Shown: positions 4,683 to 49,958 of the stretch, one piece after another | How the letters are laid out: the number at the start of each line of letters is the position of its first letter | How positions within the stretch are numbered: the first letter of the stretch is position 1 | Source of the DNA: Patescibacteria group bacterium | GTDB taxonomy: Bacteria > Patescibacteriota > Minisyncoccia > Phycocordibacterales > VMEP01 | Direction of reading: 5' to 3' | Length of the DNA stretch: 52,666 bases | Assembly: GCA_038064715.1 (NCBI GenBank) | Contig: JBBTSJ010000037.1 | Coordinates: forward strand, 1 to 52,666 | The notes under the pieces: generated by a model | Seen by the model: the letters and a program-made list of their open reading frames with translations, nothing else | Database searches by the model: none | Told to the model about the DNA's origin: nothing | Program-made: the position numbers and the translations under genes

Positions 4683-5786
4683 ATGAAAATACTAATTACT
4701 ACAGGTATTTATCCGCCGTCAATTGGCGGACCGGCTACCTATTCAAAAATTCTTTTTGAAGAATTGCCGAAACGAGGGATAGAGACTACCATCCTTTCTT
4801 TCGACGAGGTTCGGTCTTTGCCGAAGATAATTCGGCACGCGGTTTATTTTTTAAAGATATTTGGACGAAGCCGCGGATGTGGCATTATTTACGCCCAGGA
4901 TCCCGTTTCGGTCGGGTTGCCGTCTTTTTTTGCCGCGAAAATCCTTAGGAAAAATTTTTTGCTTAGAGTCGCCGGAGACTATGCCTGGGAGCAGGGAATA
5001 CAGCGTTTTGGGGTGGTTGAAATGTTGGACGATTTTGTTAAAAAACTGGCAGGGCAGTACAAGCTGCCGGTCAGATTTTTGCGTTACATAGAATACTTTG
5101 TCGCGCGTCACGCCGAACGCGTGATTGTTCCAAGCAAATACTTGAAAAAAATCGTTACCGGCTGGGGGGTGCCAGTAGAGAAAATTACCGTTATAAACAA
5201 CGCCTTTGAGGGTGTTCCCCGGGAAGCAACCAGCGACCGTCCGAAGATGCTCTTGAGCGGAAAGACGATAGTGTCAGCCGGCCGGCTTGTGCCGTGGAAG
5301 GGTTTTTTGGTTTTAGTTGAGATGATGCTTGAGTCCGTTAAAAAATTTCCCGACCTCAAGTTATATATAATAGGCGACGGACCGGACAGAGAACTGCTTG
5401 AAAGGCGAATTAAACTGCTGGAACTTAATCGCAATGTTTTTTTGTTGGGCAAAGTTTCGCAGGCGGCTCTCTTTGATTACGTGGGACAGGCGAGCGCGTT
5501 TGTTCTTAACACGGGATACGAAGGGTTTCCGCACCAAATTCTGGAGGCCCTTTCTTTGGGTACTCCGGTCGTGACTACCGATATAGGTGGGAACCAAGAC
5601 ATGATGAGGCACGGCGAGAATGGTTTTCTTGTGCCATACAACGACAAGCAAGCGCTTGCCGCGGCTGTTGAGAAAATACTTCGCGACGAGGAATTGGCTA
5701 GGAGGTTTAAAGAAAACGGAAGGGTTACTGTCGCCAAGTTTACGAAAGAAAGAATGATTAACTCGTTGATTAAAGTTATGGAATGA
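4683..5786 (+). CDS. Glycosyltransferase, GT4-like
   Basis: YEGFPHQILEALSLGTPVVTTDIGGNQDMM motif, GT-B length. Confidence 0.9.
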   Translation: MKILITTGIYPPSIGGPATYSKILFEELPKRGIETTILSFDEVRSLPKIIRHAVYFLKIFGRSRGCGIIYAQDPVSVGLPSFFAAKILRKNFLLRVAGDYAWEQGIQRFGVVEMLDDFVKKLAGQYKLPVRFLRYIEYFVARHAERVIVPSKYLKKIVTGWGVPVEKITVINNAFEGVPREATSDRPKMLLSGKTIVSAGRLVPWKGFLVLVEMMLESVKKFPDLKLYIIGDGPDRELLERRIKLLELNRNVFLLGKVSQAALFDYVGQASAFVLNTGYEGFPHQILEALSLGTPVVTTDIGGNQDMMRHGENGFLVPYNDKQALAAAVEKILRDEELARRFKENGRVTVAKFTKERMINSLIKVME

Positions 5787-5816: not shown

Positions 5817-5837
5817 CTAAACGCTAAACGCTAAATG
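5817..5837 (+). repeat. Heptanucleotide tract (ctaaacg) x3
   Basis: ctaaacg ctaaacg ctaaatg. The last unit contains the ATG at 5835. Confidence 0.8.
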
Positions 5838-7007
5838 CTTATGAAAGTCCTGATGATTTCAACCGACAGTAAAATATTGGATAGTGGGAGCGCGGTTAGG
5901 ACGCGGATGGTTTGGTATGGCGCCTCTTGCGAGGAGTTGCATATTATTGTCACGAAACACGAATCACGAAACACCCCGAGTAGCAGAGCAAAGCTCGCTA
6001 CGGGGCAGGCGAAACACGAAACAAAAATACAAGTTGCGGAAAATGTTTTTGCATATCCCGCAACCGCGTCAAATAAAATTCTCGCGCTATTCCGCGCATA
6101 CCATATTGGTGTCTCAACTTTCAACTTTCAACTTTCAACTTTCAACTGGTTGGTGACTTCCCAAGATCCTTTTGAAACCGGATTTATCGGCTGGCTTATT
6201 GCCAAAAAAATAAAAGCTAAATTGCAGCTCCAAGTTCACACGGATTTTCTAAGCCCGTATTTTATTAATGGAGATTTTTTAAATAGAATCCGTATTTTAT
6301 TGGCGCGCTTTCTTTTGCCCAAAGCCGACAGTATCCGCGTCGTTTCTCGTCGTATTGCGGATTCTCTAAACGCTAAACGCTATACGCTCAACGCTGTGCC
6401 AAAAATTTTGCCCATTTTCGTTGATATAGAGAAAATCCGCGGAACAGCTCCGACAATTGATTTGCGCAAAAAATATCCGCAATTTGATTTTCTGGTTCTT
6501 ACGACGTCGCGACTGACCCGCGAAAAAAATATTGAATTAGCAATTGAAGCCATGCGCGAAGTGGCAAAAAAATATCCGCGCGCCGGGTTGATCATTGTCG
6601 GTTCCGGTCCGGAGAAGTCTAACTTAAAACTAAAAACTGAAAACTTAAAACTTGCCGACAACGTCATTTTTGAAGAATGGTCAGACGACATCGTTTCATA
6701 CATGAAAACCGCGGATGTATTTTTGAACACTTCAAACTACGAAGGATTCGGCATGTCGCTTGTGGAAGCGGCCGCCTCCGGTTGCCCGATTGTTTCTACC
6801 GACGTCGGTATTGTTGGCGACATTCTTCGCCCGGAAGATGTTTTGGTTTGCTCGGCTCCCGACGCCGGTTGCATTTCGGACCAATTGAAGCGTATTATAC
6901 GTTTCCCGGAGCTACGCAGAGAACTTTCTCTAAAGGCCCAAACTTCAATCGAGGCGCTTGTAACAAGCAAAGAAGAGTATTTACTCAAGATAGGCGAATC
7001 GTGGTGA
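5835..7007 (+). CDS. Glycosyltransferase, GT4-like, carrying several heptanucleotide tracts
   Basis: NYEGFGMSLVEAAASGCPIVSTDVG motif. N-terminus MKVLMISTD suggests ATG 5841 as an alternative start. Confidence 0.85.
   Translation: MLMKVLMISTDSKILDSGSAVRTRMVWYGASCEELHIIVTKHESRNTPSSRAKLATGQAKHETKIQVAENVFAYPATASNKILALFRAYHIGVSTFNFQLSTFNWLVTSQDPFETGFIGWLIAKKIKAKLQLQVHTDFLSPYFINGDFLNRIRILLARFLLPKADSIRVVSRRIADSLNAKRYTLNAVPKILPIFVDIEKIRGTAPTIDLRKKYPQFDFLVLTTSRLTREKNIELAIEAMREVAKKYPRAGLIIVGSGPEKSNLKLKTENLKLADNVIFEEWSDDIVSYMKTADVFLNTSNYEGFGMSLVEAAASGCPIVSTDVGIVGDILRPEDVLVCSAPDAGCISDQLKRIIRFPELRRELSLKAQTSIEALVTSKEEYLLKIGESW
5951..5974 (+). repeat. Heptanucleotide tract (cacgaaa) x3.4, inside the CDS
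   Basis: cacgaaa cacgaat cacgaaa cac. Related gaaacac gaaacaa recurs at 6011-6024. Confidence 0.8.
5974..6005 (+). repeat. Imperfect palindrome (13-bp stem) embedded in-frame in the GT gene
   Basis: ccccg(ag)tagc(a)gagc aaa gctc gcta cgggg, flanked on both sides by cacgaaa-type direct repeats. Confidence 0.7.
6114..6148 (+). repeat. Heptanucleotide tract (tcaactt) x5, inside the CDS
   Basis: Four perfect tcaactt units plus tcaactg. Encodes STFNFQLSTFN. Confidence 0.85.
6366..6393 (+). repeat. Heptanucleotide tract (ctaaacg-type) x4, inside the CDS
   Basis: ctaaacg ctaaacg ctatacg ctcaacg, the same unit as at 5817-5837. Confidence 0.8.
6621..6655 (+). repeat. Heptanucleotide tract (aacttaa-type) x5, inside the CDS
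   Basis: aacttaa aactaaa aactgaa aacttaa aacttgc. Confidence 0.75.
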
Positions 7008-9957: not shown

Positions 9958-10092
9958 ACGGCATATTTGGTTCTAAGCGGTCGGAAAGCACGCGGATAAA
10001 TTTCCGAAAAAGATTGATTTTCAAACGGGTTTTTGTAACTACGATTCGAGTTTTAAGAAAGAGTATATTCCCGCTCTTTTAGACACACATTG

Positions 10093-12165
10093 ATGAAATT
10101 AATTTATCTAACTTCCCAAAAATATCCCTCCGCAAAAGCTGATCCTTTTTTTGTGAAATCAATGGCTCTGGCTTTTGCCAAAATCTTGGACAAGAATTTG
10201 TTGTTCGTAGTCAGGGGCGATACTCCGAATGAGTTGAAGCATCTGAACGTTATGTCGGTGAAATTACCCAGACGTTTTAGAACGATACTTTATTTCTTTT
10301 GGGTACCTATATTTATTATATTTCGTAACTGGAGCGATTCGGAAACAGTTTTTTTCTCTTCCGACCCCTATTTGTTGTCAATACTGGTATTTTGGCGTAA
10401 AACTTTGGGATTCAAGTATCTTATCTGCTCCGATTGGCATCAGCTTTTTGGCGACTGGAAAGACAAATACGTGGCGGGCAGCAGCGACTATCTTATATCT
10501 ACGTCCAAGAGATTGAAAGGACTTTTGTCTTCGGTCTGCGCTGTTAACCCAGATAAGATAGTAGTTGCGTACGGTGGAGTAGACGCAAGTCTTTTTCTTG
10601 AAAAATCAAAAACAGTAAAAACGGAATATCAAAAGAATCTTAGATTACCTACGGACTCTTTTCTTGTCGGGTATGTAGGCGGCTTCAGAAGCCTGGGCAT
10701 AGGGAAAGGCTTGGACACGATGATTAAAGCACTTCAGTATCTTGATAATAAAATAACAATGGTATTTGTCGGAGGGTCCAAAAAAGATATTGAAGAATAT
10801 ATAACACTAGCCAAAGAGATTAATGTTGAAAATAGATGTATTTTTGTGGAAAAACAGAAGCCATTTGAAAAAGTGATTGAATATGAGATGGCCATGGATA
10901 TATTGGTTATTCCATATCCGGATGAACCGCACTTCAGAGATTACGGTTTCCCAATGAAAATATGGGAGTATATGGCTTCCGGCAAGCCGATAATATATTC
11001 AGATCTCGAGATTATGGGAGAGGTGTTGGAGGGCAAGGCGGTTTCATTCGAGCCGGATAATGCGTCAAGTTTAGCCGCCGTGATTGCGCGTATTATGAAA
11101 GATACCGATGCGGCGGAAATTATTGCCGCGCGAAACCCCAAGGAAGTAGAAAATTATACTTGGGAAGCAAGAGCCGCAAGAATTATTGATTTTGTGGAGA
11201 ATGGGTCTAAAAACACAAATAACAAAAGGCAAAAAATCACGAATCTACTCTATCGTCATATTTCGATATTTGAAGACCAAATGCGATACATGAAATCAGA
11301 AAAAAGCAAAATAAAAAGGGTCGTCCATAATACGAAGGTATTAGGTTTACCGTATGTTTTTTATAGTTTATCAAGATTCAGATTATTGGGTTTTTTAAAA
11401 AATATTAGAATAAAGTTTTTCTTCGGGAAAATGATGATTCTTCCCGCGAGTGACATGGGCGCCAGTGTTTTTTCCATGTATGGTATTATGCCGCACAAAA
11501 GCGAGAGAAGACTGGCGCTTTGGCTTATAAAAAATTTGAGAGACGAAGAAGTTTTCTATGACGTGGGAGCTCATCTCGGTTACTATACAGCGCTTTCGGA
11601 GAAAATACTTACAAGGGGGGAAGTACATGCTTTTGAAGCGAACAAAAAGCTATGCGGATATCTTAGGCAAAATTTTTCGGACTCAAATAATGTCTTCATC
11701 TCGTGTATGGCAGTTGCTGATTCCGACGGCGAAGTGGATTTTTACGACGCGACAGAAATTGATGACAGTTCTGCAAGCTCCAGGTTTAGGATAAAAAAGC
11801 AGTATACTAGAGTGTCTAAGGTTTCGGCGATTACTCTGGATGACTATGTTAATAAAGGAAACAAACCGCCGACAATTATTAAGTTCGACATAGAAGGCGG
11901 AGAAGGAGATGCTATAATCGGGTCTTTGGGTCTCATAAGGAAATACAAGCCGCGTATTATGATGGAGGTTTGGGGAGGAGAGGCCGGAAAGAAATATTCC
12001 CGTGTGGCAATTGATAAGTTAAAGGAACTTGGATACAAAGCATTTTTGCTTGACTCGGAAGGAGGTATTTCCGGGAAGCCTTTGGATAATCCGATAGCCG
12101 CTATAAGCGCTGGCGGTAACGATTCCAGAGATAATCTTTTATTTCGCCTAGCAAGGAGCATGTGA
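10093..12165 (+). CDS. Fusion protein: N-terminal GT4-like glycosyltransferase plus C-terminal FkbM-family methyltransferase
   Basis: GT part: GFPMKIWEYMASGKPIIYSD. FkbM part: FYDVGAHLGYYT and IIKFDIEGGEGDAIIG. ATG at 10093 (the track starts at TTG 10090). Confidence 0.85.
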   Translation: MKLIYLTSQKYPSAKADPFFVKSMALAFAKILDKNLLFVVRGDTPNELKHLNVMSVKLPRRFRTILYFFWVPIFIIFRNWSDSETVFFSSDPYLLSILVFWRKTLGFKYLICSDWHQLFGDWKDKYVAGSSDYLISTSKRLKGLLSSVCAVNPDKIVVAYGGVDASLFLEKSKTVKTEYQKNLRLPTDSFLVGYVGGFRSLGIGKGLDTMIKALQYLDNKITMVFVGGSKKDIEEYITLAKEINVENRCIFVEKQKPFEKVIEYEMAMDILVIPYPDEPHFRDYGFPMKIWEYMASGKPIIYSDLEIMGEVLEGKAVSFEPDNASSLAAVIARIMKDTDAAEIIAARNPKEVENYTWEARAARIIDFVENGSKNTNNKRQKITNLLYRHISIFEDQMRYMKSEKSKIKRVVHNTKVLGLPYVFYSLSRFRLLGFLKNIRIKFFFGKMMILPASDMGASVFSMYGIMPHKSERRLALWLIKNLRDEEVFYDVGAHLGYYTALSEKILTRGEVHAFEANKKLCGYLRQNFSDSNNVFISCMAVADSDGEVDFYDATEIDDSSASSRFRIKKQYTRVSKVSAITLDDYVNKGNKPPTIIKFDIEGGEGDAIIGSLGLIRKYKPRIMMEVWGGEAGKKYSRVAIDKLKELGYKAFLLDSEGGISGKPLDNPIAAISAGGNDSRDNLLFRLARSM

Positions 12166-12203
12166 ATGTGTAATCACATTCACAATGTCCGAGCGACGGC
12201 GAA
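12148..12203 (+). repeat. GCGAG/CCGAGCGA hairpin element, copy A
   Basis: ctaGCAAGGAGCA-[tgtgaatgtg TAAT cacattcaca]-atgtCCGAGCGAcggcgaa. The stop codon of the upstream gene (12163-12165) lies in the stem. Confidence 0.7.
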
Positions 12204-12222
12204 TCAAAGGTTAAATACCTTA

Positions 12223-12258
12223 GAGCTTCTCGCGAAAAGGCGCGAGCGAAGCAAGCTC
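12223..12258 (+). repeat. Nested hairpin containing CGAGCGAAGC
   Basis: gagctt ctcgcg aaaagg cgcgag cgaagc aagctc. Confidence 0.55.
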
Positions 12259-12266
12259 CGATAATA

Positions 12267-12286
12267 CCTCGGGGCTTGCCCCGAGG
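12267..12286 (+). repeat. Perfect 8-bp GC-rich hairpin
   Basis: cctcgggg cttg ccccgagg, with no T-run after it. Confidence 0.7.
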
Positions 12287-12302
12287 AACCTTTATTCACG
12301 AT

Positions 12303-12353
12303 GTAGGGCGAGAGAAATGGAAAAGGATACCCTCTTATTTCCAAGTCGGAAAG
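12303..12353 (+). repeat. GCGAG/CCGAG hairpin element, copy B (degenerate)
   Basis: GTAGgGCGAGA-[gaaat..ggaaaaggataccctctt..atttc]-caagtCGGAAAg. Confidence 0.5.
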
Positions 12354-12407
12354 TTGTGTGGGAGTTAATAGAGACTTCCTTTGTAGACCAATAATCTTAA
12401 TTAATAT

Positions 12408-20491: not shown

Positions 20492-21395
20492 AAACTGTAT
20501 TGTCTGTGGCGCGGGAGGTACGCCACAGACGTGGAATGGCATAGACATTCTCAATTGTCGCAGTTGCGGTTTGGCCTGGAGAGCGTCTTTTGATATTCCG
20601 GTGGATTATTATGCCAAGTTGAATGCCGGACGACCGGAGCCGGGGGAGGGGAAAATCGTTTCCCGTCTCCGCAATGCGGAAGACCGACTTGCATCAACCA
20701 TGAGGTTTCTTCCCAAAGACGGTGTTTGCGATATCGGCTGCGGAGACGGCTCTTTTTTATCTGCCCTCAAGGAAGAAGGGTATAGAAATTGTTTCGGCAT
20801 TGAGCCAAGCTATTATAATTGCGAAATAGCCTCAAAAAACCAGCTCGAAGTTATAAAAGGAGACGTTTCTTCTTTGGGACAAGAAGCGCAAAAACGCAAA
20901 ATTAGAGCAATTACCCTTTTTCATGTAATTGAACATCTATCTGGTCCCATGGGAGTACTTCAAAATATAAAAAATGTATTAAGACCGGGCGGAGTTTTGG
21001 TTATTGAAACTCCCGATTCAAATGCTTCTATCCAAAAAGTCACCGACCACAAAAATGCCCTTATCTATCATGAGCATCTTTTTTATTGGAATGAGAAAGC
21101 CCTGCGGATGATTCTTAAAAAATTAGGATTTAGAATTCTAGCAATACAACATCGCTCATTTGATTGGAAAAATGCTCCCATTAGAGCATCATTGGCGCGA
21201 CTCGGTTTTTTTAATAAGTCATTTGTAAATTTTGGAAGTCAAGAAGGAAAAACATCAGAAAAAATAGGGCCGATAAACAACGGAAAAAAGTTGCGTAATA
21301 ATCCCTTTCGGAAGTTAATGAGAAGTATGCTTGCTTATCTGGTTCATTCGCTTGGAAGGGATGACTATATTTTTGTGGTGGCAGAGCGAACATAA
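20466..21395 (+). CDS. Class I SAM methyltransferase with N-terminal CxxC..CxxC zinc ribbon
   Basis: CIVCG..CRSCG, then VCDIGCGDGSFL motif I, then LFHVIEHL. Confidence 0.85.
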   Translation: MKKMKQSPKNCIVCGAGGTPQTWNGIDILNCRSCGLAWRASFDIPVDYYAKLNAGRPEPGEGKIVSRLRNAEDRLASTMRFLPKDGVCDIGCGDGSFLSALKEEGYRNCFGIEPSYYNCEIASKNQLEVIKGDVSSLGQEAQKRKIRAITLFHVIEHLSGPMGVLQNIKNVLRPGGVLVIETPDSNASIQKVTDHKNALIYHEHLFYWNEKALRMILKKLGFRILAIQHRSFDWKNAPIRASLARLGFFNKSFVNFGSQEGKTSEKIGPINNGKKLRNNPFRKLMRSMLAYLVHSLGRDDYIFVVAERT

Positions 21396-21410
21396 AACTT
21401 ATTAGCGGCA

Positions 21411-21460
21411 TAGAGCGAGAGAAATACAAAAGTAATCTTTTGTATTTCCGAGCCGAGGAG
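21411..21460 (+). repeat. GCGAG/CCGAG hairpin element, copy C
   Basis: taGAGCGAGA-[gaaatacaaaag TAAT cttttgtatttc]-CGAGCCGAGGAG. The 12-bp stem is perfect. Confidence 0.75.
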
Positions 21461-21512
21461 TTAATATAGGTCAATACCGCGTGATTTCTGCCGCGCGATT
21501 GAACGAACGGCC

Positions 21513-21547
21513 TGTGGTGAGCTAGGTCAAACCAAGCGAGCACCACA
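21513..21547 (+). repeat. Hairpin with AAGCGAG in the loop
   Basis: tgtggtg agctaggtcaaaccaagcgag caccaca. Confidence 0.45.
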
Positions 21548-21618
21548 TTAACCTGCGGTTTCTGCCAGAGGGGCCTATATATAATTCGGTAACAGCTTCA
21601 TTAAAGTAAACAAGATTT

Positions 21619-22383
21619 ATGGTAGAAATTTTGCGCTTCATATATAAAAATTTTTTTAAAAAAATCGCCCAATCGGCAGGTTATGATTTGGTTGTTAAAA
21701 AAATTTACAAGAACAATTTTGACGGGTATGAAATAGTAAATCCGTCCGCTACTTACGCGCCATGGTCTACGGACCAAAATTTTAAGCAAACATACGAGAT
21801 AGTAAAAAACAATACGCTTGTTGATAAATATCGATGTTATGAACTTTGGCAATTAGTTGAACAAGTCGCTCCTTTAGAAGGAGCTCTGATTGAGGTCGGA
21901 GTATGGAAAGGAGGAAGCGGGTTATTGATTGCCCATAAAGCCGCGCTTAGCGGAATAAAAAACAAAGTTTATCTATGCGATACTTTTACGGGAGTTGTCA
22001 AGGCAGGAGAAAATGATCCGTCTTATAGGGGCGGAGAACATGCCGATACCTCGGTAGATGAAGTAGAAGAAGTAATTAAAAGACTTAATCTTAAAAATAC
22101 CGAAATATTAATCGGCGTTTTTCCGGAAGACACGGGAAAATTAATCAAAGATGGTTTGTTCAGATTTTGCCACATAGACGTAGATGTATATCAATCGGCA
22201 AAAGATATTGTAGAATGGTTATGGTCAAGACTGGTAGTCGGCGGAATCATTGTTTTTGATGATTACGGTTTTCGGGGATGTGCGGGAGTGACAAGTTTCG
22301 TAAATGAGCAAAGGACCAAAAAAGACAGGATTGTCGTTCATAATTTGAACGGGCACGCGGTGCTAATAAAAATTCAAAATTAG
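21619..22383 (+). CDS. TylF/MycF-type (macrocin O-methyltransferase family) SAM methyltransferase
   Basis: GALIEVGVWKGGSGLLIA, LCDTFTG, HIDVDVYQS..GGIIVFDDYG. Confidence 0.82.
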   Translation: MVEILRFIYKNFFKKIAQSAGYDLVVKKIYKNNFDGYEIVNPSATYAPWSTDQNFKQTYEIVKNNTLVDKYRCYELWQLVEQVAPLEGALIEVGVWKGGSGLLIAHKAALSGIKNKVYLCDTFTGVVKAGENDPSYRGGEHADTSVDEVEEVIKRLNLKNTEILIGVFPEDTGKLIKDGLFRFCHIDVDVYQSAKDIVEWLWSRLVVGGIIVFDDYGFRGCAGVTSFVNEQRTKKDRIVVHNLNGHAVLIKIQN

Positions 22384-25982: not shown

Positions 25983-28030
25983 CAATTCTTTTAGCCATTG
26001 CGTTTTTTTCAACCCTTTTCTTTTTTGGTTGGCAGACAGCCCGCTTCGCCTTACACGAGAACAAAATTGAGCGTCTGATAGCCCTTAGCGGAATTTTCGG
26101 CATCGGGTTATATGTGTTTTTTATAAATATATCGGGCCTGTTTATACCCATACAAACAGTATTTTATCTCGTATTATTCTTTTTTCTTTTGTTCGCATCC
26201 GCCTGCTTTTTTTGCCGGCGGTTTCGAATTTTCGGCGGCCAGAGGCCGTTGGAATGGGGAATTGATAAGAAGTGGAGGTGGATTTTGTTTTTATTCACCT
26301 TATTTTTTGTTATTTCCATTGGTGTAATCTCTTTTAGCCATCCGATGGATCTTTTCACTCTGCGTGAACCTACTGCCGCGACCATGGCGGAAGGAAATTT
26401 CCCCCCTAAAGAGATATGGAGCCCCGATAATCCTCTTTTGTATCATTATGCTCCCGATCTTTTGTCCGCCGCCATTTATAAAGTGACAGGGATGCCGCTT
26501 TATCTGGCTTACGGTTTTCAAAAAGCTATTTTGAGCGGAGTTCTTTTTCTTCTGGCTTTTATTTTTGTGAATTCATTTTTTCCAAGTGTTTTCGTGGCGT
26601 TCTGGTCCTCGCTCTTTATGTTTTATTCCGGCTCGCTCGTTTTTCTAAAGGGCTTCGGCGGTATTCCGGTTCTTTTCGATAAGTTTGTTTTAGGCAAGGA
26701 AGTTAGCGCCCCTTTTAAATTTGTCACCGATGCTATTGGAGAAGAGTCCGGTCTTCCGGTTATAAACTATGTTCTTCAGATTCATTGGGGCGCGATGGCT
26801 TTTGCTCTCTTGTTGGCGGTCGCGTACATTTATTTCCACCTATTGAATCGCGATGAAACCCCCAATCGTTCCCCCGCCATTTTTATGGCCGGTTTCATGC
26901 TGGCCCTTCTGGCTCTTGTCGCGGAGTCCTATTTCGTAATACTTGCCTTCGTTTTGTTCGCTTTTCCGTTCATCCTGTTTTTGTTCAGAAGATATGACGG
27001 AACGCTGAAAAAATATTTTATAACTTCGTTTTTTATATTGTTGATAGCAATTCCCATAGCCATTTTTCAGGGAGGGGTTTTGAAATCGGCGGTTTATCAG
27101 GAACTTAGAATATCTTCAGCAGGGAACACAAGCGAGGTTATGTTGTATACAGACAAAAATCTTAATAAAGTCCCCATACGACTTAACACATCTCTATTCT
27201 CACACGACGGTACATCGACCTTCAACATTTCCTTCTTTGTGAAATGGGTGTTACTGCTCGTTGTGCTCATTCCCGCTTTCGTTTTTTTATTCAAGCAACA
27301 GTTTGAATTAGCTGTTTTTTTGGCATCCGCGACTTTTCTCTTTTTTGGGGCTCCGCTCCTTTTCTACTCAGACTTCCCGCTTATCAATGAAAATCTGGAA
27401 AGGTTCTTTTATCCAGTAAATCTATTTGGAGGTCTAGTTGTCGGCTTATTTCTGGCAACTTTGTATCTGCGCGCCCGCCGACCGTCGTTCAAATTGGTTC
27501 TTTTATTTCTCACCATCATTCTCTCGGCGCAAGGATTGTGGACCCATTTTGTTTGGCTCTCCTTTGGGTATCCCCCGGGAGGGCAGTGGAACCCGAATTC
27601 GATGTTTTTTGCCGATGCCGGTACTTTTGAGGCGGGCGCATATAGATGGGTTAAGGAAAATACCGCCATAAGCGACAGGTTCCTGATTATTAGAGACGAA
27701 TATTCCGAATGCGGATTTTCCGGCGCGCCGAATTGCCTTTTTATTTTCAATACCGGCAGAATGGCCCCGATTTTTAAGTGGCATCAGGCCATAAGAATCG
27801 AAGACGAGAAAGCGTCACGGAAGATTGACCAATTCGACACGGTCAGCAAAAATTGCAGTTCCTCTATCTTACGGGAATTAGGATATAACTACATATACGT
27901 TGATGAACGCTGGTCGAACAGCATGGAAACGAAATGTTTGAAAAACAATAAACTAGACCTTGTATTTGAAAATAGCAATGGAGCCAAGTTCGTAAGAATT
28001 TACTTAATTAAAGGATATGGTCTAAGATAA
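25979..28030 (+). CDS. Large polytopic membrane protein (putative GT-C-type glycosyltransferase), second of a tandem pair
   Basis: 683 aa, hydrophobic helices through residue ~540, then a soluble tail. ATGA overlap with the upstream gene. Confidence 0.55.
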   Translation: MTILLAIAFFSTLFFFGWQTARFALHENKIERLIALSGIFGIGLYVFFINISGLFIPIQTVFYLVLFFFLLFASACFFCRRFRIFGGQRPLEWGIDKKWRWILFLFTLFFVISIGVISFSHPMDLFTLREPTAATMAEGNFPPKEIWSPDNPLLYHYAPDLLSAAIYKVTGMPLYLAYGFQKAILSGVLFLLAFIFVNSFFPSVFVAFWSSLFMFYSGSLVFLKGFGGIPVLFDKFVLGKEVSAPFKFVTDAIGEESGLPVINYVLQIHWGAMAFALLLAVAYIYFHLLNRDETPNRSPAIFMAGFMLALLALVAESYFVILAFVLFAFPFILFLFRRYDGTLKKYFITSFFILLIAIPIAIFQGGVLKSAVYQELRISSAGNTSEVMLYTDKNLNKVPIRLNTSLFSHDGTSTFNISFFVKWVLLLVVLIPAFVFLFKQQFELAVFLASATFLFFGAPLLFYSDFPLINENLERFFYPVNLFGGLVVGLFLATLYLRARRPSFKLVLLFLTIILSAQGLWTHFVWLSFGYPPGGQWNPNSMFFADAGTFEAGAYRWVKENTAISDRFLIIRDEYSECGFSGAPNCLFIFNTGRMAPIFKWHQAIRIEDEKASRKIDQFDTVSKNCSSSILRELGYNYIYVDERWSNSMETKCLKNNKLDLVFENSNGAKFVRIYLIKGYGLR

Positions 28031-28084
28031 CAAAATGTTTTTTTATCAACATTTATATCTAGCAGGGAGATTCAAGAATATCAT

Positions 28085-28789
28085 ATGATGGTGGACAACA
28101 AATTATCTTCAATTTCGTTTTTTTGTCCGGCTTACAATGATGAAAAAAATCTGCCGGTTCTTATTCATTATGTCAGCCAGTTTTTGAAAGAAATTACCGA
28201 TATTTACGAAATAATAATTGTTCACGATGGCAGTCCTGATAAGACCGGGGAAGTGGCGGATAAGTTAGCCAGTGAATTTCCAAATGTGCGTGTCATACAT
28301 CATCCAAAAAACATGGGTTATGGGGCCACGCTTCGGGACGGGTTTCTTGCGGCCGAATATGATTATGTAATGTATACGGATGGGGACAACCAGTATGATG
28401 TGCGCGAATTTTTGCCGTATCTTAATCTTTTGGATACAGCCGATGTGTTGAGCGGTTATGTGACCGAAAAAGCGGTTTCTTTCCGCCGCAAAGTCCAATC
28501 GGAGGTTTATAATTGGCTTATCAGAATTTTGTTTTTTGTCTGGTGCCGGGATATTGATTGCGCCATGAAGATTTATAAGCGCAAGGTTCTGAACAGCATT
28601 TCAATTAAAAGTCCCAGCTGTTTTATTGACGCGGAAATGATAATCAAAGCCAAGAAAGCCGGCTTTCGTGTCGCCCAGTTTCCGGTTACGCATTTCCCGC
28701 GCACCGAAGGTCTGGCTTCCGGTTCAAAATTGAGCGTTATCACGGCCACTGTGAGAGATATGTTAAAATACAGGTTTGGGATATTATAA
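28085..28789 (+). CDS. GT2 glycosyltransferase (soluble, DPM1/GtrB-like catalytic domain)
   Basis: SFFCPAYNDEKNL, HDGSPDKT, YTDGDNQYD (DxD). Confidence 0.9.
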   Translation: MMVDNKLSSISFFCPAYNDEKNLPVLIHYVSQFLKEITDIYEIIIVHDGSPDKTGEVADKLASEFPNVRVIHHPKNMGYGATLRDGFLAAEYDYVMYTDGDNQYDVREFLPYLNLLDTADVLSGYVTEKAVSFRRKVQSEVYNWLIRILFFVWCRDIDCAMKIYKRKVLNSISIKSPSCFIDAEMIIKAKKAGFRVAQFPVTHFPRTEGLASGSKLSVITATVRDMLKYRFGIL

Positions 28790-29126
28790 TTGGCAGTGAG
28801 GGAGAAATGGAGAAGGCGGTTAGCCTTATACATTTCAACCGAGCGAACCAATTATATTGTATCCAGTTATATAATTGGCAGTGAGGGAGAAATGGAGAAG
28901 GCGGTTAGCCTTATACATTTCAACCGAGCGAACCAATTATATTGTATCCAGTTATATAATTGGCAGTGAGAGAGAAATGGAAAAAGCTAATGCTTTTTAC
29001 ATTTAGACCGAACGAACCGATTATAAGCGACGTAAAGCGAGAGTGATGAAAGAAAAGTAATCTTTTATTTCATTACCGAGCCGAGGAGCTTATATGTAAT
29101 CATATATTGTATTCGGTTATATAATT
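28785..29126 (+). repeat. Tandem array of four GCGAG/CCGAGCGA hairpin modules (D1, D2, E, F), 85-bp period
   Basis: Units start at tataattgg at 28785, 28870 and 28955, and the motif recurs as tataatt at 29120. D1 and D2 appear identical. E and F are diverged but keep stem pairing. Confidence 0.9.
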
Positions 29127-29130
29127 TCTT

Positions 29131-30807
29131 ATGATTCACAAAAGTGACAGAGTGGTAATAACAGGCTGCGGAGGCATGCTCGGAGAGGCCGTTTACGAGG
29201 TCTTTAAAGACGTATGCCAAGTCCGCGCTTCTGATATTGATTTAAATGTTCCTTGGCTGGAGCGGTTGGATGTGTCAGTCTCCAAAGACGTGGAAGTGTA
29301 TTTGGCTAAAGTAAAGCCAAATTACATTATTCATTTGGCCGCTTTGACCGATATGGAATATTGCGAACTGCATCCGGAAGAAGCCTATTCTACAAATACC
29401 GGCGGAGCGCAAAATGTCGCGGAGTATGCCCGAGACCACAACATACCATTGGTTTACATCTCCACAGCCGGCATTTTTGACGGTGGAAAAGATGAATATA
29501 CGGAAAGCGATACGCCGAACCCATTAAGCGTTTACAGCAAATCAAAATATGGCGGGGAATTGGTAGCGAGAACTTTGCCGAAATCAGTCGTCATCCGGGC
29601 CGGTTGGATGATGGGGGCGGGACCGAAAAAAGACAAAAAGTTTATAAATAAGATTATCAAGCAACTGCGGGTCGGGGCTAAGGAAATCGCCGTCGTTAAT
29701 GACAAATTCGGCACACCCTGTCACACCTACGACTTGGCCCAGTCCATAAAATATCTTCTTGACCACGACGCTTACGGTTTGTATCATGGAGCATGTGACG
29801 GCGGCGGAAGCCGGGCCGATATTGCCAGGTTTCTTCTTGAATGTTTCGGGCTTACGGAGCAAGTGAAAGTGAAAGAAGTCGATTCCAGCTTTTTCGCGGA
29901 AAGTTATTTTGCCAAACGCCCGCGCTCTGAAAAGCTTATTAACACGGAGCTTAAAAAAATAGCGCCCCACCTTACCAGGGACTGGAAGATATGCCTCAAG
30001 GAATATATCGAGAGATTTAACTGGAATCTGTGGGACCTTAACACTTCAGGTATGGAAAGAAGCTTTTATAAAAATTATTTCAAAGTTGAAAAAGAACACT
30101 GGCTCATGGTTGTGAGGAGGATGATTGTCAAAGACAACCTGAAGCTTTGTTTGGACAAAAACCCCGCAGAAACCAAAGTTCTGGATTTCGGCTGCGGTTC
30201 CGGAATCTTTGTTGACGAATTGGCGAAGCAAGGCTACCAGGCCTATGGTCTGGATATTTCCGAAGAAGCGGTTAAGTTTGGCATGCTTCAAGGCGTAAAA
30301 AATCTCGGAGCCATTGATGCCCATAAAATTAATTTTCCGGACAATACATTTGACGCGGTTTTTACCTTGGATGTGCTTGAGCATCTGGAGGATGAAAAAT
30401 GGGCGCTAGACGAGATTAGGAGGGTATTAAAGCCGGGCGGGGTGGCTATCATTATGGTCCCCGCCTACATGTTTCTTTGGGGGGTACAGGACGAGGTAGC
30501 CCATCATTACCGCCGCTATACAAAGAGTTCTTTGTTGAAAAAAATTAAAGAGGCTACATCTCTTAAGACACTAAAGGCGTCATATTTCAATACTTTTCTC
30601 TTTCCGCCAATCGCGTTTTTCAGGATTGTAAGCAGAATATTCGGTATAAAGGGCAGAGAGTCGGATTTTGACATCAACAGTCCCCTTATGAATAGATTTT
30701 TCTTTTCCATATTTAATACCGAAAGAAAAATTCTTAAGCATGTCAGATTTCCTTTTGGCGTTTCGATTTTGCTCGTCCTTAAGAAAGAGACAGATTCATC
30801 ATCATGA
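29131..30807 (+). CDS. Fusion protein: RmlD-like sugar-nucleotide reductase (SDR) plus class I SAM methyltransferase
   Basis: N-terminal part: VVITGCGGMLGEAV and YSKSKYGGE (YxxxK). C-terminal part: VLDFGCGSGIFVDELA and FTLDVLEHL. Confidence 0.85.
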   Translation: MIHKSDRVVITGCGGMLGEAVYEVFKDVCQVRASDIDLNVPWLERLDVSVSKDVEVYLAKVKPNYIIHLAALTDMEYCELHPEEAYSTNTGGAQNVAEYARDHNIPLVYISTAGIFDGGKDEYTESDTPNPLSVYSKSKYGGELVARTLPKSVVIRAGWMMGAGPKKDKKFINKIIKQLRVGAKEIAVVNDKFGTPCHTYDLAQSIKYLLDHDAYGLYHGACDGGGSRADIARFLLECFGLTEQVKVKEVDSSFFAESYFAKRPRSEKLINTELKKIAPHLTRDWKICLKEYIERFNWNLWDLNTSGMERSFYKNYFKVEKEHWLMVVRRMIVKDNLKLCLDKNPAETKVLDFGCGSGIFVDELAKQGYQAYGLDISEEAVKFGMLQGVKNLGAIDAHKINFPDNTFDAVFTLDVLEHLEDEKWALDEIRRVLKPGGVAIIMVPAYMFLWGVQDEVAHHYRRYTKSSLLKKIKEATSLKTLKASYFNTFLFPPIAFFRIVSRIFGIKGRESDFDINSPLMNRFFFSIFNTERKILKHVRFPFGVSILLVLKKETDSSS

Positions 30808-32057
30808 AGATTCTATTTCTTTCCGACGATTTCCCGCCGGCTAGTTTCGGCGGAGCGGGGATTTCTACTTACGAACTTGCTCTCGGTATGAAGAATGCCG
30901 GGCATGAGGTTTTTGTTGTTACAACCTGCAGAAAAGAGAGTGAAGAAGGAGAACTCGATTATAACGGTATAAAAGTTTGGAAAATCGCGAACGATTATCC
31001 GGGCAAATGGCGCGCGTATGTGAGCCTGTATAATCGGCCAGTTGTTCGCAAAGTAGAGGAATTGCTAAAGAAAATAAAGCCGGATGTGGCGCACGCCAAC
31101 AACATACACCTCTACCTCTCGTACCATTGTCTTAAGGTGGCGAAGCGATATGCTAAAGCAGTTATAATAACCCTTCGCGACGCAATGTCCTTTAACTTTG
31201 CAAAACTGGAAACAAAGCGGTATCTGGAGCATTTTGATTACCGCACAACATGGCGTGACCATATTAAACAAGCGGGGAAAAGATGGAATCCGCTGCGCAA
31301 TTTCTGCATTAAAAGATATCTTGGATACGCGGACAAGATTTTTGCCATAAGCAGGTCCTTACAGGCAGCGCTCGTTCAAAACGGCATCAATGATGTAGAA
31401 GTTATATATAACGGCATTGATGCTCGCGAATGGGGTGTTGACGCAGATGCCATGGTTCGTTTCCGAGTGAAGTATGGGTTGCAGAACAAAAAAGTGCTTT
31501 TGTTCAGCGGGCGGCTTAGCGCGTCAAAAGGCGGAGAGAAGGCGCTTCAAGCACTCGCGCTAACGGTGAAAGAAGTGCCAGAAGCAGTACTCTTGGTAGC
31601 CGGTAACATTGATGAGTATGCGGAGGTAATGAAGAAGCAAGCGAAGAATTTGGGCGTAGAAAAAAATCTGATTTTTACCGGTTGGATAGAGCGAGAGGAA
31701 ATCAAAGCAGCATATGCCGTTTCAGATGTGGTGCTAATGCCCTCTATTTGTTTTGATGTATTCGGCCGGGTGAATATCGAGGCAATGGCCTCGAGAAAAC
31801 CGGTGGTTGGCACCTGTTATGGAGGCACTCCCGAAATTGTTGTTGATGGAGTCACGGGCTACATCGTGAATCCTCTACACCCGGAAGAGATTGCCGAAAA
31901 AACTCTTGATTTGCTAAAAAATCCGGAAAAAGCGGAAAAGTTCGGTGAAGCCGGCTACGATAGAGTAAAGACAAACTTTAATTTGGAAGATAGGGTAAGG
32001 GAATACATTTCCGTATATGAGAAGTTATTAAGAGCCTGTTCAACATCTAATGTCTAG
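30804..32057 (+). CDS. Glycosyltransferase, GT4-like
   Basis: GRVNIEAMASRKPVVGTCYGGTPEIVVDGVTGYIV. ATGA overlap with the upstream gene. Confidence 0.9.
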   Translation: MKILFLSDDFPPASFGGAGISTYELALGMKNAGHEVFVVTTCRKESEEGELDYNGIKVWKIANDYPGKWRAYVSLYNRPVVRKVEELLKKIKPDVAHANNIHLYLSYHCLKVAKRYAKAVIITLRDAMSFNFAKLETKRYLEHFDYRTTWRDHIKQAGKRWNPLRNFCIKRYLGYADKIFAISRSLQAALVQNGINDVEVIYNGIDAREWGVDADAMVRFRVKYGLQNKKVLLFSGRLSASKGGEKALQALALTVKEVPEAVLLVAGNIDEYAEVMKKQAKNLGVEKNLIFTGWIEREEIKAAYAVSDVVLMPSICFDVFGRVNIEAMASRKPVVGTCYGGTPEIVVDGVTGYIVNPLHPEEIAEKTLDLLKNPEKAEKFGEAGYDRVKTNFNLEDRVREYISVYEKLLRACSTSNV

Positions 32058-32059
32058 AT

Positions 32060-32159
32060 AAAACGTTAAAATTTCGAGCGAAAATCGCGAAACGCGAGGA
32101 AGCGATACGAGTATCGTTGACAAGCGATGAGCGATTTGCAGCCAAAATTTTAACGTTTT
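32060..32159. repeat. Perfect 15-bp inverted repeat enclosing a 70-nt GCGA-rich core
   Basis: aaaacgttaaaattt (32060-32074) pairs with aaattttaacgtttt (32145-32159). The core contains GCGA six times, including CGAGCGAA and GCGAGGAAGCGA. Confidence 0.8.
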
Positions 32160-32319
32160 AGCAGGCAAACAAGCATTCCGGTCTTATTTTGCGCTTAGAT
32201 GCTGAACAGGCTCTAAGAAAAAACAATAACTAACTGACAAATAGCTATGTTTTTGGAAAAAACGCAAGCTGGACATACATACTGAAATATAATAATGTGT
32301 AGTGAAATTTACTATATAA

Positions 32320-41598: not shown

Positions 41599-41650
41599 AC
41601 CTTGAAGATACAACGAAAAATTATATTTGGAAACCCCATCCTATCCGTTA

Positions 41651-41713
41651 TTTCGTCTAGCGAGGATCGCGTGTGAATGTAATCATTCACACGGCGTCCG
41701 AGTGAAGACGAAA
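41651..41713 (+). repeat. GCGAG/CCGAG hairpin element, copy G
   Basis: tttcgtct-AGCGAGGATCGC-[gtgtgaatg TAAT cattcacac]-GGCGTCCGAGTGA-agacgaaa. The inner stem is almost identical to copy A. Confidence 0.75.
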
Positions 41714-41721
41714 CATTGTAC

Positions 41722-45427: not shown

Positions 45428-45437
45428 CAAGGAAACA

Positions 45438-45477
45438 CCAAGGGTCGTCCTTGGTCCCTGCCAAGGACGACCCTTGG
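45438..45477. repeat. REP-like perfect palindrome (17-bp arms)
   Basis: ccaagggtcgtccttgg tccctg ccaaggacgacccttgg. Each arm is itself a 6-bp hairpin. Confidence 0.9.
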
Positions 45478-45496
45478 CAGACTTTACTTTAATAGA

Positions 45497-45679
45497 ATGC
45501 AAAGAAAATTTATTTTTTCTGTAGGTGAGTACTACCACATCTACAACAGAGGTGTAGAGAAAAGAAATTTGTTTTTAGACAACACTGACTGCGATAGATT
45601 CATGCGTCTTCTCTATATTTCCAATGGCGTAAAACCGGTAATCTTGAGAGATTGCCAAGGACGACCCTTGGCGGAATAG
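45497..45679 (+). pseudogene. Truncated IS200/IS605-like Y1 transposase (RAYT-type) N-terminal fragment
   Basis: MQRKFIFSVGEYYHIYNRGVEKRNLFLDNTDCDRFMRLL matches the ..YH.ynRG....iF.d..D...F..lL N-terminus of COG1943-type proteins. It ends before the HUH motif, and its last codons are encoded by a REP copy. Confidence 0.6.
45655..45671. repeat. Third copy of the REP-like 17-mer
   Basis: ccaaggacgacccttgg. With flanks, tgccaaggacgacccttggc is identical to 45459-45478. Confidence 0.9.
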
Positions 45680-45707
45680 AAGATTACTATAATGCTATAA
45701 TAATTGT

Positions 45708-47321: not shown

Positions 47322-47563
47322 GTTCATATAAAGGAACTATTATTGAAAGCAGTCTGAAAGACAAGAAAATTTTAGATGAAGTCAAGATTGTTAAAAAGTA
47401 CAAAGACGAGGATTGGGTACTTTACGACATAGAAATTGAGGAAAATAAAATAAAAGATTTACAGAAATATATAAATGACGGACCTTGGTACAGACATTTA
47501 TGGAATGGAGAAAAAATAATGATGAAGTTTATGTTGTATACAAAGAAAGTATTTTTAAGATAA
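47318..47563 (+). CDS. Hypothetical protein, probably frameshifted (continues in another frame to 47655)
   Basis: This ORF ends at 47563. A second protein-like frame is open from 47479 (in-frame ATG at 47500) to 47655: ..NNDEVYVVYKESIFKIKYSDKSTWAEAINYGEKVGIPEEQLDFLIH*. The junction lies near the A-run at 47510-47516. Confidence 0.45.
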   Translation: MSSYKGTIIESSLKDKKILDEVKIVKKYKDEDWVLYDIEIEENKIKDLQKYINDGPWYRHLWNGEKIMMKFMLYTKKVFLR

Positions 47564-47656
47564 AATATTCGGATAAATCAACTTGGGCTGAAGCTATAAA
47601 TTATGGGGAAAAAGTAGGAATACCGGAAGAACAATTAGATTTTTTAATTCACTAAC

Positions 47657-48346: not shown

Positions 48347-48353
48347 TTAAAAA

Positions 48354-48668
48354 ATGAAGAAAAAAGGGACTATAAAAAAAGGAGTTTCAAACGAAGACCT
48401 GGCTCGCATGGTTGCTAAGGGTTTTGAAAGTATGGATAATAATTTTTCGGGACTTGAAAATAAAATGACGGGGCTTGAGGACAGAATGACGGGACTTGAG
48501 GACAAAGTAGACGGGTTTGAACGACGCGTTACGCAAAAAATAGGGAATCTTGAAAGGCGAATCGATGATGTTGTGATGAATCGCGCCACAAAAGACGAAG
48601 TCTACGCCCTTTCTCTGCGTGTTGATAATCTTGAAATCAAGACCGGGCTAAAAGAGAAGGGAAAATAG
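48354..48668 (+). CDS. Small coiled-coil protein with heptad peptide repeats
   Basis: SGLENKM TGLEDRM TGLEDKV DGFERRV, encoded by four 21-nt units (48447-48530). Confidence 0.6.
   Translation: MKKKGTIKKGVSNEDLARMVAKGFESMDNNFSGLENKMTGLEDRMTGLEDKVDGFERRVTQKIGNLERRIDDVVMNRATKDEVYALSLRVDNLEIKTGLKEKGK
48447..48530 (+). repeat. 21-nt tandem repeat x4 within the CDS
   Basis: tcgggacttgaaaataaaatg / acggggcttgaggacagaatg / acgggacttgaggacaaagta / gacgggtttgaacgacgcgtt. Confidence 0.8.
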
Positions 48669-48674
48669 GCCGCG

Positions 48675-49541: not shown

Positions 49542-49565
49542 ATCTCTTACTTATAACCAATAACT

Positions 49566-49946
49566 ATGACAATAACAAAAACAACCCCTTTTCGCTTCTT
49601 CGAGTGGTCGGTTTACCGCGACGCAAAGGAATTTTTTAATTTAAGTTTTGGGATAGTTAAGAAACTTCCTAAAGAATACAGATTTGAAATAGGAAGCCAA
49701 ATAATCAGGTCAAGCCTATCGGTTTCCTTAAATATAGCAGAGGGAGCTGGCAAAAATTCCGACAAAGATTTTAATCATTTTTTGAATATTGCATCAGGGT
49801 CATTGTTTGAAACTGTTGCCGCCTTCGATATATTAAAAGACAACAACCTTATAAGCGAGAAAGAATTTACAGATACATTGAATTTAGGGGGTGTAATTTC
49901 CAACCAGCTTGGCGGGTTTAAAAAACGATTATTGCGTAATAGTTAA
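49566..49946 (+). CDS. Four-helix-bundle protein (23S rRNA intervening-sequence protein / Avd-like family)
   Basis: IRSSLSVSLNIAEGAGKNSDKDFNHFLNIASGSLFE matches the ..S...NIAEG.gr.s..ef..fl.iA.GS..E signature. Confidence 0.85.
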   Translation: MTITKTTPFRFFEWSVYRDAKEFFNLSFGIVKKLPKEYRFEIGSQIIRSSLSVSLNIAEGAGKNSDKDFNHFLNIASGSLFETVAAFDILKDNNLISEKEFTDTLNLGGVISNQLGGFKKRLLRNS

Positions 49947-49958
49947 CTGTTATAAGTT

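Follow-up and report, generated by a model that had tools for sequence, protein, structure and literature searches.

A hairpin-repeat array in a patescibacterial glycan gene cluster, probably a mosaic of two related repeat families dispersed in the candidate phyla radiation

The bacterial interspersed mosaic elements (BIMEs) of enterobacteria are mosaic clusters of repetitive extragenic palindromes (REPs), and some REP families are mobilised by Y1 transposases of the REP-associated tyrosine transposase (RAYT) type. In the Correia elements of Neisseria (NEMIS/CREE) the terminal inverted repeats are long and conserved, and the copies in one genome are near-identical; the BOX elements of Streptococcus pneumoniae occur in only a few streptococci. 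The present report concerns a 341-base spacer in a 52,666-nucleotide stretch of DNA from a Patescibacteria group bacterium (GenBank assembly GCA_038064715.1, contig JBBTSJ010000037.1, forward strand; hereafter the window). The spacer separates the genes for a family 2 glycosyltransferase (GT2) and an RmlD-methyltransferase fusion, and it is a pile-up of small hairpin-forming repeats. It is read here, with a probability of roughly 0.6, as a nested and tandem cluster of non-coding hairpin repeats from two related families dispersed in the candidate phyla radiation (CPR), forming a mosaic of the BIME, BOX or Correia kind and not a dedicated regulatory RNA. A BIME-like REP cluster was one of several roles listed in an earlier note on this DNA, and it is the role favoured here because the modules are dispersed mosaic intergenic repeats and the array is absent from relatives.

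The array occupies positions 28785–29125 of the plus strand. The GT2 gene (28085–28789, plus strand) ends within the first TATAAT of the array (28785–28790, plus strand), which holds the GT2 stop codon TAA (28787–28789), forms the 5' part of the first outer stem and would be the insertion target, TTATAA/T. The RmlD-methyltransferase gene (29131–30807, plus strand) lies directly downstream. Tandem Repeats Finder reported a repeat of period 85 over 28785–29025, with 2.8 copies, 91% matches and a score of 391. The first two units, D1 (28785–28869) and D2 (28870–28954), are 100% identical, as the earlier note had suggested, and the 32-mer at the start of the D unit occurs three times in the window versus none expected. 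D1 is composed of a hairpin (28785–28856) with the outer stem TATAATTGG/CCAATTATA, a linker TTGTATCCAGT (28857–28867) and a final TA. D2 repeats it exactly, and its presence varies among assemblies. The third unit, E (28955–29025), is a diverged copy of D with the apical stem AAAAAGC/GCTTTTT, and it represents the subtype that is commonest in other genomes. The 85-bp period is confined to these three units. The earlier description of four modules of this period therefore stood for D1, D2 and E but not for the fourth hairpin, F (29021–29095), which belongs to a separate, though related, hairpin family. F has the outer stem TTATAAGC/GCTTATA, the core GACGTAAAGCGAGAG ... CCGAGCCGAGGAG and an inner stem that varies and is capped by a TAAT loop. 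Its 5' arm (TTATAAGC, 29021–29028) is overlapped by the 3' arm of E (CCGATTATA, 29017–29025), and the shared stem segment noticed previously was read again at 29017–29028. The 3' arm of F is in turn overlapped by a mini-hairpin, TATATG-TAAT-CATATA (29091–29106), a module that recurs after canonical units, and the array closes with the linker TTGTATTCGGT + TATATAAT (29107–29125). All of these parts lie on the plus strand. TATAAT is found at 28785, 28870, 28955 and 29120–29125, and its last occurrence stands 5 nt before the ATG at 29131, where it had been placed before.

When each unit was folded as plus-strand RNA, rod-like hairpins with z-scores of about −6 to −7 were predicted. The energies of D, E and F were −29.8, −20.5 and −24.0 kcal/mol, with z-scores of −7.1, −6.2 and −6.0 respectively. 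The whole spacer folded at −114.6 kcal/mol (z −8.2) on the plus strand versus −85.8 kcal/mol on the minus strand; the minus-strand fold was weaker by 5.7–7.8 kcal/mol per array module and by 2.4–7.8 kcal/mol per unit. A U-A pair in D is replaced by U-G in E. The earlier interpretation of this change as one that preserves structure proved genuine, and it generalises to the strong covariation found over 81 copies of the canonical hairpin.

F and copy C, which lies in another intergenic gap of the same gene cluster (21396–21472, plus strand), are canonical members of a hairpin family of about 77 nt that is dispersed in Patescibacteria. The two share AGCGAGAG ... AAAAGTAATCTTTT ... CCGAGCCGAGGAG, and the stems in between differ. 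A scan of one genome per species with the pattern AGCGAGAG-N(20–45)-CCGAGCCGAGGAG identified at least 117 loci with this core, at least about 90 of them in metagenome-assembled genomes (MAGs) of Patescibacteria. The CPR matches listed belong to the Paceibacteria, the Yonath-, Kaiser-, Nomura-, Buchanan-, Komeili-, Doudna- and Shapirobacteria, many Saccharibacteria and the Hainich H43/H51 bins; the rest of the matches listed are GC-rich chance hits without a hairpin. Sequence outside the search pattern is also conserved among the CPR matches, and the 9 nt located 5' of AGCGAGAG are nearly invariant across about 90 genomes among the matches listed. The consensus reads ttatTAGC-GACGTAG-AGCGAGAG, a stem of 9–12 bp with a loop of 4–6 nt, then CCGAGCCGAGGAG-GCTAata, and its purine-rich core (GACGTAGAGCGAGAG / CCGAGCCGAGGAG) is nearly invariant in the canonical family. 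The outer stems of canonical units, 7–9 bp in length, are not conserved but covary from copy to copy.

An alignment of 81 copies of the canonical hairpin (A1) was used to examine the structure. In A1, a GTAG tetranucleotide in the internal loop between outer stem and core is at least 90% conserved. RNAalifold predicted 21 pairs, 15 of them with compensatory changes, and in a 23-pair structure 94.5% of the cells are paired. Cells with compensatory double changes number 225, versus 49 ± 6 in shuffled alignments and at most 57 when the partners were slid. In the RNAalifold table, G·U pairs in the stems outnumber A·C mismatches by 52 to 23, which indicates that the constraint acts on one strand in single-stranded form. 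On a reading of the invariant columns, the unpaired core may be drawn as three tandem G·A/A·G steps parted by G-C pairs, with three single-base bulges. Such covarying stems round a nearly invariant core imply a conserved single-strand-binding partner in the CPR; this partner would recognise the elements while they are RNA or single-stranded DNA.

A covariance model built from A1, termed R1, was applied to the window and returned two strong, one medium and about five weak copies in its 52.7 kb. The strong copies are C (87.1 bits, E 6e-27) and F (70.1 bits, E 4e-21, over 29018–29100). The medium one is a diverged canonical-type hairpin, copy B (12289–12364, plus strand; 31.6 bits, E 6e-8). D1 and D2 scored 16.8 bits (E 0.006) and 15.3 bits (E 0.021) respectively, and E gave a partial match of 14.5 bits (E 0.039). 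By these scores F is canonical, and D and E are its distant relatives. A degenerate member, copy H (41648–41718, plus strand; 16.4 bits, E 0.009), lies between two minus-strand genes. No Rfam 15 family reached its gathering score anywhere in the window, and a search at E values up to 10 over 28500–29400 and 21380–21640 gave no relevant hits, including to the EAR (eps-associated RNA) element and riboswitches. A tRNA/tmRNA scan found neither. The CPR-wide repeat families thus appear to be undescribed, as no account of them was found in the literature searched or by the Rfam scans. A conserved family of structured intergenic repeats across many candidate phyla is unexpected because CPR genomes are very small and gene-dense.

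The canonical units behave as dispersed repeats. They are intergenic in about 80 of 94 cases, and their orientation to the flanking open reading frames (ORFs) is random, with both neighbours in the same direction as the unit in 19 cases, both opposite in 16, divergent in 14 and convergent in 13. Orientation relative to local GC skew, at 42 versus 37, is likewise not significant. Clustering of 458 neighbouring ORFs by blastp revealed no recurrent neighbour family; the largest cluster, with 6 of about 90 loci, stands next to release factor 2 (Pfam PCRF/RF-1) and is not mobility-related. Pfam assignments for the 150 ORFs nearest to canonical units were to release factor, ABC ATPase, S1, sigma-70 and other housekeeping families. 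An antitermination RNA of polysaccharide operons, of the EAR or JUMPStart kind, was considered and rejected because the neighbours are unrelated housekeeping genes and the orientation is random. Canonical copies probably number in the tens per genome. About half of the units are then trailed by one of a few recurrent modules, namely TTGTATCCAGTTATATA (the tail of the window unit), a TATRnnnnYATA mini-hairpin (as after F) or a larger AGGTnnAATACC-GCGCGG... element (as after copy C). Units in tandem were also seen at other loci (L079, L015, L113 and L129).

The D/E type forms a smaller group. A metagenome scan with a 26-mer common to D and E found 12 loci, about 8 of them distinct, with four copies on one 510-kb contig. 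A TATAAT marks both ends of D-type units, which are conserved over their whole length as TATAAT-TGGCAGTGAGGGAGAAATGG...CCAATTATA-TTGTAYCCRGT-TATATAAT. At 7 of the 8 distinct loci the start of an ORF in the same orientation falls in the range from 2 nt before to 38 nt after the end of the terminal TATAAT, the offsets being +5 in the window, +6 in L128, +8 in L129, +14 in L126, +30 in L127, +38 in L131 and −2 in L125. The first TATAAT is preceded by TGn in six of nine distinct copies, often right after an upstream terminator-like hairpin. In L131 (contig Ga0082335_1000026), an element of about 135 nt with the inverted ends CCTGCCCGCC.../...GGCAGGCGGG is inserted in the 3' internal loop of a D-type hairpin, and nested insertions into these hairpins recur.

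The history of the spacer can be traced by comparison with five related genomes whose RmlD-methyltransferase homologues share 77–86% protein identity with that of the window. The gene is preceded by the same GT2 gene in all five, and in these relatives it begins 4–20 nt past the GT2 stop in every case except one. The junction reads TAA-TACC-ATG in L140 (4 nt), cATTATAA-TTTTTC-GTG in L138 (6 nt) and TAA-ACTCTC-GTG in L141 (6 nt), and L137 has a 20-nt spacer; these four sites are empty. The fifth relative, L136, carries one D-type unit, TTATAA/TTGGCAG...CAGTTATATAA/TTTTCT-ATG, at exactly this position. The window has four modules between the same landmarks, TTATAA/...TTATATAA/TTTCTT-ATG, and its population carries three to four. 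The inserted element is bracketed by a TATAA direct repeat on both sides, and the few bases originally ahead of the start codon are retained after it. In L138 the empty site already has a TATAAT 5 nt upstream of the start. The short junctions in relatives, together with the TATAA brackets, indicate that the array is an insertion at TTATAA(T) over the GT2 stop. The presence of the orthologous junction without the array in relatives also tells against a locus-specific form of another role suggested in the earlier note, a multi-hairpin RNA; such an RNA dedicated to the RmlD-methyltransferase gene is not supported.

Nesting can be read in a similar way. The sequence CCAATTATA-TTGTAT is uninterrupted in D1, D2 and L136, whereas in E it is split as TTATA/AGCGACG...GAGCTTATATGTAATCATATA/TTGTAT, with the 3' tail of E broken by F after TTATA; F is thus nested in E. 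A near-identical composite of D-type unit, F, mini-hairpin and linker stands ahead of a different gene on the L131 contig, so that this composite is itself a repeated unit. A further composite, a long hairpin of about 280 nt, is nearly identical on two contigs of a single MAG (H51-bin152_1; L027, about 4870–5170, and L040), with arms TTTGAATTAC.AAACTC...GAGTTTCGTAATTCAAA and a canonical unit at its apex. This duplicate is a sign that a nested element has been copied or has moved recently.

These comparisons suggest a sequence of events for the spacer. A D-type element would have inserted at TTATAA(T), overlapping the GT2 stop codon, and D-type units would afterwards have been amplified in tandem to give D1 and D2. 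F, with its mini-hairpin, would have become nested in E just past TTATA. Insertion may have uncoupled two formerly adjacent genes and given the GT2 message a 3' end with stable hairpins. Duplication of the target would have kept a TATAAT 5 nt upstream of the RmlD-methyltransferase ATG, now separated from the GT2 stop by 341 nt of hairpins.

Identical tandem units in a short-read assembly raise the possibility that the D1/D2 duplication, or even the entire array, is a mis-join of dispersed repeat copies. Exact-protein look-ups with the flanking genes located the same locus in metagenome assemblies of Hainich groundwater (well H43) and in the MAG GCA_964363125.1. One independent assembly (L001) has the same 341-nt spacer with two D copies, and contig NODE_173 (ERZ1292638; L002/L005) has one D copy, which is one fewer than in the window. 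Three other contigs (L003, L004 and L006) break within the array, L003 inside its second D copy. The single D copy of NODE_173, the contigs that stop inside the array and the complete identity of D1 and D2 are all consistent with a mis-join. However, two independent assemblies besides the window, L001 and NODE_173, connect the flanking genes across the array in an unchanged order, the related genome L136 carries one unit at exactly this junction, and an unrelated Joint Genome Institute assembly (L129) contains three tandem D-type units that differ slightly from one another, which indicates that tandem D-type arrays are not merely assembler products. A mis-join is accordingly considered improbable. 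The order of GT2, array and RmlD-methyltransferase is reproducible across assemblies, and the number of D copies (one, two or more) is either polymorphic or an assembly-level ambiguity. At position 28971 the window reads A where the other assemblies read G. CPR MAGs assembled from short reads are fragmented by these repeats, which is of practical concern for such genomes.

The position of the repeats relative to start codons was also considered. The earlier note had remarked on the absence of a Shine-Dalgarno (SD) sequence at 29131. This is true but not distinctive, as an SD-like motif precedes only 2 of the window's 41 gene starts. A TATAAT or TAAAAT ends 6 nt before the starts of unit-heading genes at 45708, 41613 (minus strand) and 52029 (minus strand), and 5 nt before the start at 29131. 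This pattern across the window suggests that leaderless or SD-independent initiation is widespread in the organism, and the TATAAT 5 nt before the RmlD-methyltransferase ATG has the geometry that would be expected for a leaderless transcript. A scan of 28000–29800 for consensus promoters and terminators gave counts no higher than in shuffled sequence and found no terminator in the array. The proposal that the modules are iterated promoter-like units is partly plausible in that TATAAT lies 5–8 nt before a start codon here and in two other loci, but the terminal TATAAT is most simply explained by insertion into, and duplication of, a TATAA(T) target. D-type elements appear to insert at TATAA(T) shortly upstream of starts in a genome that nearly lacks SD sequences, which connects the mobility of the repeats with the architecture of promoters and perhaps with the expression of leaderless messages.

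ORFs of 25 codons had been reported in D1, D2 and copy B (12317–12394), and they were read there as described. A translated leader peptide, encoded in tandem by D1 and D2 and regulating the downstream gene, could account for the identity of the two D ORFs and for the ATG preceded by GGGAGA that is found in D1, D2, E, B and D-type copies elsewhere. The peptide itself, however, is not conserved. The ORF has 9 codons in E, where it ends in TAG, 25 in D and more than 30 in L127 and L128. Two L129 units have GTG in place of ATG, and copy C has no ATG at that position. The sequences past MEK are unrelated, substitutions keep base pairing and not codons, and the genome makes almost no use of SD sequences. 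Translation of these ORFs as a regulatory leader is therefore regarded as very improbable.

Several observations weigh against interpretation of the spacer as a mosaic of mobile repeats. When 40 of the 41 window genes were compared with Pfam, no candidate for mobilisation such as a transposase or integrase came up. No transposase-like ORF was apparent between inverted copies in L113 and L040, where translations were inspected and not profile-searched, and transposase, integrase and Nop/Tas were absent among the recurrent families of the 150 nearest ORFs. The copy density is modest, with about 12 R1 hits beyond the seeded ones in 622 kb of CPR DNA. The flanks of the array, TTATAA on the left and TTATATAA on the right, fit target duplication and insertion 3' of a fixed target alike, and the filled and empty sites come from different species (77–86% protein identity) and not from one population. 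Copies within a genome keep the core while their stems have strongly diverged (F versus C; L052 versus L053), which looks like purifying selection on each copy and not like recent bursts of transposition. In addition, four CPR species (L019, L046, L094 and L103) have a unit in the gap that separates prfB, the gene for release factor 2, from an ABC ATPase gene like ftsE. These copies are co-oriented with the genes and have a different inner stem in each species, and their positional conservation fits long vertical inheritance of a functional element.

The last two of these points also favour a functional RNA. Each hairpin could be a protein-binding RNA, with the purine-rich core as a tandem G·A or kink-turn-like platform, which is transcribed either with the operon or by itself and acts in mRNA processing, stability or cistron insulation, and the array would then be multivalent. 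The strong covariation with an invariant unpaired core, the excess of G·U over A·C and the more stable plus strand agree with this, as does the strand of the window copies, which is that of the long glycan operon in every case but H, a copy flanked by genes of the opposite strand. On the other hand, the random orientation of units across about 90 loci, including convergent and divergent gaps, would leave half of them transcribed in antisense unless they had promoters of their own, and no conserved promoter or terminator flanks the units. There is no Rfam match even at E values up to 10, and the absence of the array from the same junction in relatives shows that it is not needed for this operon. 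On balance a protein-binding RNA is considered unlikely, although it is the strongest competitor of the dispersed-repeat mosaic. A more speculative extension, slightly less probable still, is that the hairpin with its G·A core is the ligand of a CPR-wide protein or ribonucleoprotein. It might represent a new class of multi-copy structured RNA, or the recognition module of a single-stranded DNA mobilisation system that targets TATAAT promoter hexamers; in either case the array would be a functional multimer and not debris.

Tandem stem-loops in a CPR genome also recall the tandem interspaced guide RNA (TIGR) systems. Stem-loop arrays of this type and their CPR hosts have been described (Faure et al., 2025, PMC12045711; Xu et al., 2026, bioRxiv 10.64898/2026.09.09.750476), and these two TIGR papers were the only relevant ones in the literature searched on CPR repeats and on SD-less or leaderless expression in Patescibacteria. 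A tigRNA unit runs in the order stem, box C, spacer A, loop or hairpin, spacer B, box D and stem, and it guides a Nop-domain Tas protein to DNA (PMC12045711; bioRxiv 10.64898/2026.09.09.750476). The units of the window are superficially alike in layout, with an outer stem, 13–15 unpaired nt, a central hairpin, a second unpaired segment and the closing stem. However, the segments in the position of spacers are alike in all window copies and nearly invariant elsewhere (CGACGTAG) where they fall outside the search pattern. A1 contains no symmetric CUU/UG box motifs, and no Nop domain was detected in 40 of the 41 window genes by Pfam or among the recurrent families of the 150 nearest ORFs. The units are mostly solitary and dispersed next to housekeeping genes. 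A TIGR-Tas guide array is thus largely refuted as an explanation of the tandem stem-loops, and it ranks with the leader peptide among the least probable ones.

When all intergenic gaps were folded and read, similar hairpins were found in other gaps of the long plus-strand cluster for glycan biosynthesis to which the array belongs. The repeats mark module borders in this surface-glycan gene cluster and could favour cassette shuffling there. Copy C is followed by a second conserved composite element (21461–21590), which is also present in L009, L015, L034, L121 and other loci. It consists of an outer inverted repeat, TATAGGTC...GGGGCCTATATA, round two or three hairpins (AATACC-GCGYG..., a middle hairpin and CCTGCG..CAGAGGGG), and it has no Rfam match. 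In CPR genomes, a module that begins with AGGTnnAATACC trails 19 of the 94 canonical units. Ahead of copy B lie a further three hairpins (12135–12300). The first has a TAAT loop and starts at the stop codon of the gene at 10090–12165 (..CCGAGCGACGG), the second is GAGCTTCTCGCG-AAAAGG-CGCGAGCGAAGCAAGCTC and the third is the GC-rich CCTCGGGGCTTGCCCCGAGG. An imperfect hairpin of 105 nt with GA-rich loops (CGAGCGAA..., CGAGGAAGCG...) occurs at 32059–32160, where R1 gave a weak match of 8.6 bits. It is nested in a second inverted repeat (32031–32064 / 32181–32214) that begins in the 3' end of a gene for a family 4 glycosyltransferase (GT4).

Repeats of other kinds were also observed in the window. 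The gap at 45428–45707, upstream of the glyceraldehyde-3-phosphate dehydrogenase gene, starts with a near-perfect GC-rich palindrome (CCAAGGGTCGTCCTTGG...CCAAGGACGACCCTTGG), and has an extra copy of one palindrome arm near its end; this repeat belongs to a different family. Five heptanucleotide tandem repeats lie at 5817–6653, inside or beside the part of the GT4 gene at 5835–7007 that encodes the N-terminal half: CTAAACG (3.3 copies), CACGAAA (3.4), TCAACTT (4.9, perfect), CTAAACG again (4.3) and AACTTAA (4.7). They might be slippage-prone tracts in a glycosyltransferase. A 21-nt tandem repeat with 3.2 copies was found at 48448–48515. The pentose-phosphate genes (rpiB, rpe and a split transketolase) are parted by unusually long gaps (47322–47656, 48347–48674 and 49542–49958), which may hold small unannotated ORFs or other insertions.

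Among known systems, miniature inverted-repeat transposable elements resemble the array in the contrast of filled and empty sites with a flanking TATAA repeat, here seen between species. They differ in that the outer stems here are short and covarying and are not conserved terminal inverted repeats, and no parent insertion sequence (IS) was found in the sequence examined. Elements derived from IS200/IS605 (PATE-like) transpose by way of single-stranded DNA hairpins; they have subterminal hairpins, insert strand-specifically 3' of a short fixed target and depend on the HUH Y1 enzyme TnpA to bind and cut their ends. The hairpins found here are compatible with such elements, as are the TATAA that is constant both at the left flank and at the right end and the strand-asymmetric pairing; the orientation of the units does not follow GC skew (42 versus 37). 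Correia elements are, like the present units, small non-coding palindromic insertions with TATA-type ends and duplicated TA-rich targets. Both kinds often lie just upstream of genes, with ends that can supply −10-like hexamers, and Correia elements are transcribed as hairpins when inside operons, as the present units may be. In contrast to Correia elements, the stems here covary, copies within a genome have diverged, the internal loops are conserved and the target appears to be TATAA(T) rather than TA. BOX elements are similarly modular intergenic repeats in which one module occurs in variable tandem number, with stable predicted RNA or DNA folds, although their sequence is unrelated.

The likeness to BIMEs and REPs extends to extragenic imperfect palindromes in either orientation, to tandem and mosaic clustering with a few other short motifs and to a location between operon genes, where hairpins in the RNA can make the message upstream more stable. 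The canonical unit also conserves a GTAG tetranucleotide, although here it lies inside the hairpin, in an internal loop, and not at the 5' foot. No RAYT-like gene stands next to any copy examined in the neighbourhoods sampled. The CPR units are longer than REPs, at about 77–85 nt, and conserve an unpaired purine-rich core rather than the stem. Their copies appear to number tens rather than hundreds per genome, and the family spans many candidate phyla and not a single genus.

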